Of a stretch of 64,000 nt of DNA, positions 31,789-35,059 are shown in pieces (position 1 is the stretch's first letter; every line of letters starts with the position of its first letter). A model generated the notes under the pieces. That model ran no database searches, was not told where the DNA came from, and saw only the letters and a list, made by a program, of their open reading frames with translations. Origin of the DNA: Phormidesmis sp. (GTDB lineage Bacteria; Cyanobacteriota; Cyanobacteriia; Leptolyngbyales; Leptolyngbyaceae); the NCBI GenBank assembly GCA_965248535.1, contig CBDFJR010000002.1:1248001-1312000 (forward strand). Direction: 5' to 3'. Both the position numbers and the translations under genes were made by a program.

Positions 31789-32283
31789 TCAAGTCGGTTT
31801 TTTCACCACACATTGAATTGAACTGGGTACAGGAGATGAAAATTCTGAATACATGAAGACTTCGTTAGATATACGTCCAGACGTACTAGTGGTCACGAAG
31901 ATGGAATTATTACAGATTAGAGCTTTACGCTCATAAAGATAATCTGAGAAGTTTTTGCCAGGAGGCTTTCCTGTTTCTCCAATTCTGAGGATTAACCGAT
32001 AGCCTGTAGGAATAACGCGACGAAAGAAAATCCAATCATATTTGATGCGGGTAGCTTGTTCAATCCAAGCTTCACGGATAGGATAATCAGATTTTCCCCA
32101 ACGAATTACATTACTTTTCAGGGTTGGTTGAGAGATCAATACTTCGCGTATTCGAGCTTCAGTAATTGATTCAGTCATAAATCCTGGAGAATAATATTCA
32201 ACAACTATATTATTGACAAGTTGCATAACAACTAATATACCTACAAATATAGTGATAATTCCAGCAGCCACCTTGGACTTCAA
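31789..32283 (-). CDS. Hypothetical AT-rich protein with N-terminal TM helix (putative cassette gene)
   Basis: 164-aa ORF, TTG start with GAGG RBS; visibly AT-richer than flanks; no HIP1 seen. Confidence 0.6.
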   Translation of the reverse strand: MKSKVAAGIITIFVGILVVMQLVNNIVVEYYSPGFMTESITEARIREVLISQPTLKSNVIRWGKSDYPIREAWIEQATRIKYDWIFFRRVIPTGYRLILRIGETGKPPGKNFSDYLYERKALICNNSIFVTTSTSGRISNEVFMYSEFSSPVPSSIQCVVKKPT

Positions 32284-32398
32284 ATCACTACCTCAGCGAT
32301 AATATTAAGACAATTTAATTCTGAACACTGACAAGTATATTTTTAGCTAAGTCTTGATCAAAACTTGCGGCATAACTAAGCCTGTAATCTAAATACCG

Positions 32399-32548
32399 CA
32401 CTCGATTTTTGATGCGATCTCCCCAAGCCCTACAGCAGCTAGACAGTGTTTTCCTCAGCCTGAGCAGCTTGCATCTAAGCTAGTTTTCTAACCTACGATC
32501 GTCAAGCAAAACTCAGAATGAGAAGTTTTTCGGAACACACTTAGCAAC
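32399..32548 (-). repeat. Conserved non-coding leader element, copy 1
   Basis: Similar to 33883-34027 and 34964-35059; shared core acctacgatcgtcaagcaaaaytcagaatgag. Confidence 0.88.
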
Positions 32549-32634
32549 ACCCAACGGCTAAGTTGAGCGGCGGCTAGTGTCCTTTGCATCCTCACCAAAA
32601 TCTCTAGCCTGTCCGCGCCAACGTGCTGTTAGAC
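32549..32634 (-). mobile_element. Integron attC-like recombination site 1
   Basis: Minus strand GTCTAAC-AGCACGTTGGCGCGGACAGGC...TAGCCGCCGCTCAACTTAGCC-GTTGGGT: RYYYAAC/GTTRRRY boxes, 86-bp imperfect palindrome. Confidence 0.8.
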
Positions 32635-32788
32635 TGGGCTTTCGCGATAAGTTCACGACTCCTCTCCCGCCTTCCGCTTGCTGCTTTTGCAAATCAGCAA
32701 AGATAGCTTTCAAATCATGATTGAATGAACGAGAATATTCTTCACGAATTCTGTGGATCTCTTCGACAATCTCATCTTGAAACATCAT
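32558..32788 (-). CDS. Small protein downstream of PIN toxin (putative antitoxin); C-terminus reads into attC
   Basis: DEIVEEIHRIREEY..FNHDLKAIFADL; start overlaps PIN stop. Confidence 0.75.
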   Translation of the reverse strand: MMFQDEIVEEIHRIREEYSRSFNHDLKAIFADLQKQQAEGGRGVVNLSRKPSLTARWRGQARDFGEDAKDTSRRST

Positions 32789-33261
32789 TAACCTCCAAGA
32801 AGTTCATAGGGTGTACAAAGAATCGGCAACTCGTATCCCAAATCAAAACTGATTTCTGCCAATTTTCTCTGAATTTGAGCGTTGGCAATGTGCTTACAAT
32901 TCCAGGTCAGCAGGTAATCCATGCCGTGAACGGTTGCGGCTGCGATATGAATAGCGTCAACATCAGCTTTTGCGGGAAGGTTACTACGTCCCAAGAATTG
33001 TTCTGCTAAATCAAGTACAGACTGGTTCAAGTCGAGTAACGAAAAATTGCGAAGGATTTCTAGTCGTTGAGATGCGATCGCGGCATCGCCCTGAGAGGTT
33101 TCTTTCACGACTGCCTGAGAGGAATAGAGTTGGAAGTCGCTGCGGCGCGTATCCCACCACTCTCTCGTTATCTCAATACTTGCAGCCACAACAACGTCTC
33201 TGCTTGGTCGAGCAGTCAAGTAGCCTAAGATACTGGTTTCTATGTAGACGGTTTCACTCAT
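32788..33261 (-). CDS. PIN-domain (VapC-like) toxin
   Basis: VYIETSIL, DAIHIAAA, DYLLTWNCKHIANA. Confidence 0.88.
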   Translation of the reverse strand: MSETVYIETSILGYLTARPSRDVVVAASIEITREWWDTRRSDFQLYSSQAVVKETSQGDAAIASQRLEILRNFSLLDLNQSVLDLAEQFLGRSNLPAKADVDAIHIAAATVHGMDYLLTWNCKHIANAQIQRKLAEISFDLGYELPILCTPYELLGG

Positions 33262-33288
33262 ACCCAGCAAATCGCAAGCCTCTTGATT

Positions 33289-33603
33289 TTAGTTCATATC
33301 ATTGCTTGCCGTTTTGATGTGGGTCGGTCGATGTTTGGGACGCTGGTTATAGCCAATGCCGGGATTATTTGACTCATACAAAAGAATATACTCGACCTCC
33401 TTGAGATTAACTTCTTGATTCGATGCCGTTTCAGACTCCCAAAGAATTTCCTTTCTAATTGTGAAGTCTCTTCTTTGCTCTCTGGTAAAGTCTTCCTCAA
33501 TTACTTTATTATTAGCACTTCCAAAGTAATTGATGCTGTCTGTTAAATCCTGTCCGATGTAAATTTTTCCATTAGGGTAAGTAACTTTATAAATCATCTT
33601 CAT
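33289..33603 (-). CDS. Stand-alone GIY-YIG nuclease family protein
   Basis: [28 protein letters not shown]. Confidence 0.8.
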
Positions 33604-33656
33604 TGCTTCAAGTAGAAAGACATAAACTAACTCCGAGATAGTGGTCTAACTTCCTT

Positions 33657-33798
33657 TTAGAGAGAAGGTTTCCGCATATCACACCAAAATGGGTGAATAG
33701 GCAGATGGCTTCTGCATAACACCCCAAACAAGGTAGATAGGCGGAATCTTTCTTCACAATACGCTCATGTGGATGGATAGAGGGATTCTTTCCGCACA
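33657..33798. repeat. Degenerate 40-bp-period tandem repeat next to a GTTAGAC core (33644-33650, minus)
   Basis: TTCyGCA-like motif at 33670, 33710, 33750, 33790; ATAG at 33697, 33737, 33777. Confidence 0.7.
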
Positions 33799-33882
33799 TT
33801 TTCAGATTGAGTCCGGCTGTCAATGCACAGGTTCCCTAGACCGGAGATGTTCGCTTTAGCACTGAACGTGCTGTGATTGCTA

Positions 33883-34027
33883 CACTCGATTTTGACGCGA
33901 TCGCCCCAAGCCCTACAGCAGTTAAACAGCATTTTTCGCAGCCAGAACAGCCTACATTTAATCGATTCTGACCTACGATCGTCAAGCAAAATTCAGAATG
34001 AGAAGTTTTCGTAATACAGTCAGCAAC
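33883..34027 (-). repeat. Conserved non-coding leader element, copy 2
   Basis: cactcgattttga.gcgatc.ccccaagccctacagcag...acctacgatcgtcaagcaaaattcagaatgagaagtttt...agcaacacc. Confidence 0.88.
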
Positions 34028-34114
34028 ACCTAACGGCTCAAATCAGCGGCGGCAGATAACCTTAAACTCACCACCAGAGGCTTTCAACCGTCTGCTGCAT
34101 TTGAATTGCTAGAC
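34028..34114 (-). mobile_element. Integron attC-like recombination site 2 (one mismatch in the R'' box)
   Basis: Minus strand GTCTAGC-AATTCAAATGCAGCAGACGG...CCGCCGCTGATTTGAGCC-GTTAGGT; 87 bp; TCAAAT.CAGC pairs with GCTGATTTGA. Confidence 0.75.
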
Positions 34115-34188
34115 CGTGCCAAGCCAACAGTTGGAGCCACTAAGTGCACCATGATAATATCAGACAAATCGTTTCGACCTTGAGAAAA

Positions 34189-34443
34189 ATGGGGCTACAG
34201 ATCTCAATTTCTGACTCTATTGTGCAAGCTCTTCGCTTACCAGAACCGCGTATTGAGCAGGAATTACGTCGAGAATTAGCCATTGCGCTCTATACACAAG
34301 ACATTCTCTCCTTTGGTAAAGCACGAGAATTAGCTGAGATGGATAAATATGAGTTTGGGCAACTGCTGGCTCTTCGTGGAGTAGTGCGGCATTACGGTTT
34401 TACAGAATTAGATGATGATTTAAGCTATGCCCGTAGTCAGTAA
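34189..34443 (+). CDS. UPF0175 family protein (putative antitoxin)
   Basis: LRRELAIALY...LSFGKARELA...LDDDL. Confidence 0.88.
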   Translation: MGLQISISDSIVQALRLPEPRIEQELRRELAIALYTQDILSFGKARELAEMDKYEFGQLLALRGVVRHYGFTELDDDLSYARSQ

Positions 34444-34906
34444 CACTTCACCAATTCTCAATCTGGCGATCGTAAATCAGCTTATCCTCTTGCATCAGCA
34501 GTTTGGTGAAATTCTGGTTCCAAATGCTGTGTTGGATGAGTTAAAAGTTAGTGAAGAGCGACCGGGTTCTCAAGCAATTCGTGAAGCAATTTCGTCGGGT
34601 TGGATTCAGAGTCAAGAGGTAAGGAACGAACCCCTTGCTCAACTTTTGAAGCAAACACTGGATCGAGGAGAAGCTGAAGCGATCGCCCTCGCCATTGAGC
34701 TTAGGGCAGATTGGACGCTTCTGGATGAGCGTGAAGGCAGAAAAGTTGCCAAGTCTCTAGGATTGAGAGTAACGGGAATTTTGGGGATTTTGCTTCGGGC
34801 TAAACAGCTAGGTGAGATCGAATCATTACAGCTTGTTATTGACGACTTGATAAACAAAGCTGGATTTCGGATTGCACCAGAACTATTGACTCAAATTCTG
34901 ATGTAG
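34427..34906 (+). CDS. DUF3368 PIN-like protein (putative toxin)
   Basis: VVSNTSPIL, LDRGEAEAIALA, LLDEREGR, VTGILGIL. Confidence 0.88.
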   Translation: MPVVSNTSPILNLAIVNQLILLHQQFGEILVPNAVLDELKVSEERPGSQAIREAISSGWIQSQEVRNEPLAQLLKQTLDRGEAEAIALAIELRADWTLLDEREGRKVAKSLGLRVTGILGILLRAKQLGEIESLQLVIDDLINKAGFRIAPELLTQILM

Positions 34907-34963
34907 TAAACTTTCATACATTTGGATAATTTATGATACTGGCGATGAGGACGGTTAGCACCT

Positions 34964-35059
34964 CGATCGCCACAGCAGTTAAACAGCGTTTTTCTCGGCT
35001 AGAACAGCCTACATTTAAGCGATTCTGACCTACGATCGTCAAGCAAAATTCAGAATGAG
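34964..35059 (-). repeat. Conserved non-coding leader element, copy 3 (truncated, starts at a HIP1-like site)
   Basis: cgatcgc-cacagcagttaaacagc...acctacgatcgtcaagcaaaattcagaatgag; ends about 8 bp before the GNAT ATG. Confidence 0.85.

Follow-up and report, generated by a model that had tools for sequence, protein, structure and literature searches.

The island analyzed here lies on a 64,000-nucleotide stretch of a Phormidesmis sp. genome (the window; positions 1248001-1312000 of contig C2 in the 5.03-Mb source genome, G000), between a host TPR-repeat gene and a host gene for an Eis-like GNAT acetyltransferase. With reasonable confidence, it is interpreted as an integron cassette array that possesses an attI site of its own but lacks an integrase gene, and that likely resides in a small, non-autonomous mobile platform relying on external enzymes for its movement as well as for cassette uptake. 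The features of the sequence suggest a mini-integron free of an integrase and similar to a miniature inverted-repeat transposable element (MITE). The full form of this interpretation is plausible but more tentative: a doubly non-autonomous MITE-like unit of about 320 bp, with inverted ends based on the highly iterated palindrome HIP1, an internal attI and a target duplication of about 13 bp, would seed landing pads around cyanobacterial chromosomes, which a distant integron integrase (IntI) would load. Filling by recombinases encoded elsewhere in the genome is likely, and this corresponds to the mobilization in trans that the original prediction had proposed. Since the docking platform carries paired transposon-like ends, its spread to new chromosomal sites is likely as well.

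Cassette array, attI head and distant integrases

Two imperfect palindromes on the minus strand, from which the island had been predicted to be an integrase-less cassette array, are present at 32549-32634 (attC1, 86 bp) and 34028-34114 (attC2, 87 bp), as are the motifs GTTAGAC at 33650-33644, GTCTAAC in attC1 and GTCTAGC in attC2. Their proposed identity as attC sites was confirmed with a covariance model trained on 35 attC sites, none of them from the window. attC1 scores 58.6 bits (E 4e-11), with an intact AAC/GTT core and one mismatch in the L box, and attC2 scores 78.5 bits (E 1e-15), with the R'' core changed from AAC to AGC; the R and L boxes pair on the bottom strand. The training sites were selected from 42 collected sites by excluding three outside 80-92 bp, the ortholog of attC2 in the relative G002, a paralog of attC1 and two sites with doubtful ends, and they had been collected by a hidden Markov model (HMM) whose first seed included both window sites. 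In the alignment of the 35 sites, 94.9% of the cells are paired, a value reached by none of 500 shuffles, and 11 of the 17 pairs show changes on both sides. The scoring strand is the bottom (plus) strand for both window sites, and the two extrahelical bases expected from the proposed bottom-strand folding occur in both, while plain folding lends weak support with z-scores of -2.75 for attC1 and -1.07 for attC2. Minimum free energy alone was rejected as an attC test because attC2 could not be separated from shuffles, and a hand-written attC rule recovered only four sites in 11 regions and placed attC1 on the wrong strand. With all filters off, the covariance model found no third attC in the window, only an opposite-strand echo of attC2 with 18 bits.

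The complementary AAC/GTT core is present in attC1 and broken in attC2, and the same AAC to AGC change is found in G002. attC2 is probably nearly inert, a prediction based on a class 1 assay in which the recombination of attC with attI1 fell from 2.2e-3 to 6e-6 when the middle base was non-complementary (PMC2811028). The exact 7/7 complement between GTTAGAC and GTCTAAC, which had been read as the two ends of one cassette, is real but weak as evidence: GTCTAAC accounts for 7 of the 42 R'' boxes collected, and such a match is therefore expected by chance about one time in six.

Judged from its sequence context, the GTTAGAC at 33650 marks the crossover point of an attI site that belongs to the array itself and is not only the start of a cassette. 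The simple site (33644..33662, minus strand) consists of the attI1-like L box CTCTAAA, a 5-bp spacer and the R box G|TTAGAC, with the crossover after 33650. It is preceded by four imperfect 40-bp repeats (33663..33809, minus strand; boxes at 33795, 33755, 33715 and 33675), which Tandem Repeats Finder did not pick up. Over 164 bp, the repeat and attI region is 72% identical to the region just upstream of the intact intI of a complete integron on G002:C58. Window positions 33647-34009 are kept directly upstream of GNAT in all five genus relatives that possess GNAT (G001-G003, G005 and G007; in G001 and G002 the match is from 33788 by BLAST and beyond this by HMM). Among these relatives homology extends up to GTT, beyond which the bases differ, and head-like contigs from two unrelated metagenome runs likewise diverge at 33646-33648. 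The L box, the spacer, the divergence point at GTT and the homology to sites adjacent to intI are all in agreement with an attI site. A match to the head was found in 41 of the 90 genomes of the family. The array of G001 at this locus contains another attI head, of a different type (L015, on G001:C29; some 900-1030 bp into the reversed interval).

This head also bears on the possibility of a plain cluster of attC sites lacking an integrase (CALIN) that arose from stray attC x attG insertions at chance GTT positions, with no attI. Such a route has been demonstrated in E. coli (bioRxiv 10.1101/2022.09.11.507474), and lone attC sites do exist in the source genome. However, cassettes of the island enter at a conserved head of the attI type that is common to complete integrons and fixed across the genus, which largely refutes this explanation and leaves it very improbable.

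As predicted, the window contains no integrase: no tyrosine recombinase matches were found in its 64 kb. The proposed search of the genome revealed two intact, full-length intI genes at C2:161487 and C2:1131581 (TIGR02249, 468 and 466 bits), each adjoining an array, at distances of 1.12 Mb and 0.15 Mb from the island. Among the eight genus genomes, seven have an intI match, which is above the cut-off in five. A covariance scan of the source genome gave 49 matches, one of them the opposite-strand echo, among the 150 of 1604 candidates that were scored. Thus, two integrases stand against about 48 attC sites across many loci, some of them lone.

In several attC sites outside the window, a group II intron is inserted in the R'' box. 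Introns of the group IIC-attC type are expected of true attC sites. The intron is about 710 nt long and has no open reading frame (ORF); seven copies are 98.6-100% identical (G000:C2:1133215-1133925 and others), and diverged ones occur. Two further repeated components were observed in the source genome. An element of about 700 bp with a 123-aa ORF of no known family lies downstream of the integrase gene intI_B (G000:C2:1130862-1131579) and at 16 other places, with the ORF intact in 16 of the 17 copies. It heads many orphan arrays, is absent from the window and occurs in nine of the 90 family genomes, eight of which belong to the same genus. The idea that these platforms start at an IntI crossover was dropped, as the GTT is a hairpin arm and is present in about 11 of the 17 G000 copies and few of those in relatives. 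The other component is a gene-less first cassette of about 200 bp (97-98% identity), which is common to both complete integrons and one orphan platform (C2:161065-161262, C2:1132747-1132944 and C5:797639-797882) and is a candidate promoter cassette.

The content of the array is not invariant among relatives. The comparison of the TPR-GNAT interval, suggested together with the prediction, shows that the interiors of G000, G001, G002, G005 and G007 have nothing in common except a single PIN family (68%) and a single block (95%); G003 was left out because its locus is split over contig ends. No relatives of GNAT were found in metagenome contigs, and the sample for this locus is therefore limited to six genomes.

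Leader, tail and the proposed spread of the platform

The place of intI is occupied by a conserved leader of about 100 bp (33810..33907, minus strand), which begins with GGGGCGATCGC, the left inverted repeat with HIP1 inside. At the other end, the relatives carry a conserved tail of about 52 bp that directly follows the last attC crossover and ends in HIP1. In the window this tail is decayed (31593..31652, minus strand; tail HMM match at 31651-31621, E 0.009 genome-wide), and a short insertion interrupts its terminal HIP1. Insertions that are similar in sequence interrupt the tail-end HIP1 in three genomes (window 31596-31625 and the tails of L230 and L173).

Both elements recur at unrelated loci. 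The same tail ends arrays next to lysS and next to gatC, at G002:C102, G002:C54, G001:C14, G007:C390 and G002:C112, and in G076, G097 and L209, and it was matched in 11 of the 90 genomes, from three genera. Leader and repeats adjoin in the same manner at unrelated loci and in three genera, and named records with the same leader come from Phormidesmis and an Elainellales cyanobacterium. Three of the four tail matches in the source genome have a leader upstream, and 16 of the 34 distinct leader copies collected have a tail downstream. In 17 leader-tail pairs from 11 loci, the ends form imperfect, HIP1-based inverted repeats that agree in 8-13 of 14 bases; where a locus has two tails (L166, L172), the outer one was taken. 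A flanking direct repeat of at least 9/13 bases occurs at five of the 11 loci, namely TPR-GNAT (four of five genomes), gatC (one of two), G001:C14, G002:C112 and L209, compared to one of 248 cross-locus control pairs. At TPR-GNAT, the direct repeat corresponds to the last codons of TPR.

For three loci, empty sites exist in other genomes, and HIP1 is absent at the insertion point. Two of these empty sites contain the duplicated stretch once, and one shows no duplication. In G011, from another genus, GNAT directly adjoins TPR, and the head was not found at 19 TPR loci of other genera examined over 1.5 kb per side. G009 carries a 35-bp collapsed form consisting of both ends only; as a common repeat this form was rejected, being present in one of the 90 genomes. 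Behind leader copies of relatives (L166, L167, L169 and L230), typical defence-type genes were observed, with GmrSD, RiboL-PSP-HEPN, mCpol, C5 methylase, HNH and ResIII domains.

Several results weigh against a mobile, IntI-loaded platform. Six of the 34 leaders have no tail within at least 5 kb and another 12 could not be judged, while 10 of 12 further tail loci lack a leader in the DNA examined. Direct repeats score 7/13 or less at six of the 11 loci, the window's own repeat is decayed, and no well-preserved pair of ends with direct repeats was found in the source genome. None of 57 ORFs inside or behind leader copies belongs to a transposase or recombinase family. Matching ends were not seen around the 12 DDE transposase loci (PF01609) of the source genome, the search for a cognate transposase having covered these loci and one end pattern across 401 genomes. 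HIP1 is very common (5128 copies), and since it is itself palindromic, the symmetry of the ends is inflated; look-alikes of the tail end occur without integron parts in other families. Concerning the loading of the array, no sigma-70-like promoter was found in the head (33650-33907), and G007 has distinct cassettes at the locus but no intI match, its genome being 92% complete. The source of the linkers that precede two of the rearranged copies described below could not be traced either, with no further copy of their junction in metagenome contigs, the source genome or the loci examined except in G002.

An alternative origin for the same structures would be the insertion of a whole mobile integron (leader, intI, attI and tail), similar to Tn402, that later lost intI, so that the small form never moved by itself. 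The homology of the repeats and attI to intI-proximal regions would fit such a loss, as would other platform types of the source genome that resemble intI deletions (C5:797.9 kb compared to intI_B). In addition, intI fragments were found at two of the 30 head loci returned, although none of the 30 has a full intI within 1.5 kb. However, no leader turned up within roughly 1.5 kb of the examined intI loci, none of the genus genomes examined has a trace of intI in its TPR-GNAT interval, and the uniform joins of leader and repeats at unrelated loci and in three genera would need repeated identical deletions. This origin is considered unlikely.

Even less probable is that the platform spread without a transposase, by HIP1 recombination or by homology-assisted uptake of transforming DNA, and that the inverted ends only reflect HIP1. 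HIP1 is indeed contained in both ends, two junctions of the island lie at CGATCG (those of the GNAT upstream copy A3 and the TPR duplication), and blocks are 92-95% identical between species. These processes likely explain the inner rearrangements of the island. For the platform as a whole, they are opposed by the three empty sites without HIP1 at the insertion point, by a symmetry that reaches about 14 bases inward of HIP1 and by the locus-specific repeats of about 13 bp at five of 11 loci.

Under the preferred reading of a small mobile platform, three steps are proposed. First, the leader, 40-bp repeats, attI and 52-bp tail, together about 310-330 bp, would have been inserted as a unit at the stop codon of TPR in the ancestor of the genus, duplicating about 13 bp in the manner of a MITE by means of a mobilizing enzyme that was not found. 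Second, an IntI from elsewhere would insert cassettes at G|TT of attI, shifting older ones toward the tail. Third, in the lineage of the source genome, the segment comprising linker, GNAT upstream DNA, leader and attI would have been copied in tandem as an attI-type cassette. Every copy would have acquired cassettes, and later deletions would have eliminated one of the heads, shortened another and joined two cassettes into one. Tandem attI-type cassettes are the simplest reading of the third step given the precedent in class 1 integrons, where such cassettes are reported to recombine (PMC12901181).

Rearranged copies and cargo of the island

The flanking genes are both on the plus strand. TPR (30157..30843; Pfam TPR) has an ortholog in 65 of the 90 family genomes, and GNAT (35068..36255) was assigned with Pfam and NCBIfam. 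The G+C content of the island between them is 38-47% compared to 50% for the genome. An IS200/IS605-type element with TnpB-like and Y1 transposase matches was observed outside the island at 38770-40747.

Within the island, host DNA from both flanks is repeated, and a duplication inside the array affects the head as well. The last 89 bp of TPR recur at 31503..31591 (plus strand, 90% identical to 30756-30844), and this duplicate carries the downstream context of relatives. The duplication is joined at CGATCG and encloses a DUF4160/DUF2442 gene pair between the two copies. The upstream region of GNAT is present in three copies, A1 to A3, according to sequence comparison. A3 (34972..35067, plus strand) is the native one and is cut beside CGATCG, where the leader would begin. 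The inner unit U2 (33908..34033, minus strand) consists of a linker after the attC2 crossover and A2, which is 94% identical to A3, and runs into the whole leader. The inner unit U1 (32399..32554, minus strand) consists of the same linker, of about 25 bp, after the attC1 crossover, A1 and the first 26 bp of the leader. An origin of the linkers from diverged GNAT coding sequence was rejected, as the alignment gives no support for it. A1 is 77-78% identical to A2 and A3. G002 has the same layout of attC2, linker, A copy and head, and its in-array A copy is closest to A1 (92%, compared to 74-75% for A2 and A3), which points to an exchange between species.

Assembly error is unlikely for this layout because contigs from sequencing runs bridge its junctions. 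The attI junction is spanned with zero differences by contigs of run X1, and the A2 and A3 junctions appear in contigs from both X1 and X2; the two runs may be related to the source of the genome and are not independent evidence. One X1 contig (depth 3.9, 85% likeness) joins 32419 to 34990 via 29 other letters, as expected of a related strain without U2 and the inverted gene pair, and in each of X1 and X2 a single contig leads from 31511 back to 30766. Both are weak hints.

The cassette-array reading of the original prediction thus stands with regard to real attC sites, no nearby integrase and variable content, but it had missed the attI head, the leader and tail, the triple GNAT upstream copies and the TPR-end duplicate. 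In addition, there is probably only one freely mobile cassette, the GIY-YIG-PIN-antitoxin block, which is predicted to be excisable. This is due to the AGC core of attC2, the lost 5' end of the UPF0175/DUF3368 cassette, an ORF of 164 aa without an attC and the apparent fusion of the GIY-YIG and PIN cassettes.

Within this block, the 76-aa putative antitoxin (32558..32788, minus strand) has no family match and reads into attC1, as had been noted. It adjoins a putative VapC-like toxin with a PIN domain (32788..33270, minus strand; Pfam E 2.6e-4), and the same pairing of PIN with a small gene was also found at C5:1.631 Mb and in relatives. The labels given earlier to the two larger proteins come with qualifications: PIN scores 22 bits, just below the Pfam cut-off of 23.6, and GIY-YIG comes from the source names of homologs and not from Pfam. 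For neither protein was a match to a solved structure found. Most homologs of the 104-aa GIY-YIG-like protein (33289..33603, minus strand) among the matches listed have 93 aa and cover 87%. Its last 12 or so codons derive from the 5' part of a PIN cassette, judging from homolog lengths and a sequence match; positions 33130-33330 match the PIN cassette at C5:358409-358606. The block is therefore probably a fusion of two cassettes, and the 7/7 match of its ends may be due to chance.

On the attC2 side, the UPF0175 and DUF3368 pair (34144..34906, plus strand; Pfam, PADLOC candidate PDC-S70) is inverted relative to the array, as originally described, and has a 95% copy at the same locus in G002. 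The 164-aa ORF (31789..32283, minus strand) has a cassette-like start, GTTATGC at 32376-32370, and 23 homologs. It has no assigned function and no family match, and the covariance model with filters off found no attC for it. A repeat of about 65 bp lies at 31690-31754, the place expected for its attC, and is also found at C2:610708 and partly at C5:1397091. The DUF4160 and DUF2442 pair (30880..31405, minus strand; Pfam) is a candidate DhiTA-like toxin-antitoxin system, with a weak NF048015 match far below the cut-off. The pair itself has no attC, and in G006 two attC sites enclose an 83% copy. The PIN, DUF3368/UPF0175 and DUF4160/DUF2442 pairs, identified by family matches only, likely stabilize the island. 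Named homologs of the window proteins are mostly cyanobacterial.

Comparison with known systems

For CALINs, intI loss, rearrangement and secondary-site insertion are listed as origins by Cury et al. 2016 (PMC4889954), and in that study 95% of CALINs have no nearby intI pseudogene. A small mobile attI unit, if true, would be a further route to integrase-less arrays. It would explain how one genome can have two integrases and about 48 attC sites at many loci. It would also account in concrete terms for the origin of many such arrays and imply the existence of a mobilizing enzyme. If the transposon-like reading fails, the island is an ordinary CALIN with a retained attI. The system lends itself to direct tests: the attI of a cyanobacterium is defined, two integrases are candidates for acting on it, the ends are paired, and filled sites can be matched with empty ones. 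No literature on cyanobacterial attI platforms with inverted ends, or on leader-tail pairing with repeats of about 13 bp, was found in the sources searched, which leave out most subscription journals; genome tables of IntegronFinder studies may already list such arrays.

The island resembles CALINs in its two attC sites, found with our own covariance model, in the absence of intI nearby (the nearest is about 150 kb away), in the presence of intI elsewhere and in its toxin-antitoxin and unassigned cargo. While CALINs are defined by attC sites only (PMC4889954), the island adds an attI head, defined ends and turnover at a fixed entry point; it is not a complete integron, as no intI adjoins the attI. 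Conserved CALIN loci have been reported in Xanthomonas (10.1101/2025.06.18.660453). Insertions at attG that yield single attC sites lacking an integrase (SALINs) also involve an IntI acting far from its own gene, but their target is a bare GWT (bioRxiv 10.1101/2022.09.11.507474), whereas the island's target is a conserved attI-type platform.

The attI site shares an L box (6/7 with CCCTAAA), a 5-bp spacer and a GTTRRRY R box with attI1 of class 1 integrons (PMC12901181; PMC2811028), whereas four 40-bp repeats replace DR1 and DR2 and no intI is adjacent. The units U1 and U2 and the G002 copy resemble the delta-attI-type cassettes of class 1 and class 2 integrons in being units after an attC crossover that end in attI within an array. 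In contrast to those cassettes, which carry a gene and, in most cases, a truncated attI (PMC12901181), U2 has no gene and consists of host intergenic DNA and a whole head.

The closest parallels to the proposed mobility are class 1 integrons mobilized by MITEs or integron mobilization units (IMUs) and Tn402-derived integrons (PMC3575428, PMC10969869), which are likewise bounded by inverted repeats, produce target duplications and depend on a transposase in trans. Of the features of a MITE, the platform shows imperfect terminal inverted repeats and is short, non-coding and present in 34 leader copies at unrelated loci. A cognate transposase with the same ends was not found within the search scope given above, and a target duplication of the MITE type is only partly evident from the flanking sequences. 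In the published systems, a class 1 platform with intI or part of it lies between two complete MITEs (of 439 bp or 288 bp) or between the ends of Tn402. The island, in contrast, would represent one small unit with attI inside, no intI, HIP1-based ends and repeats of about 13 bp, whose mobility is predicted.

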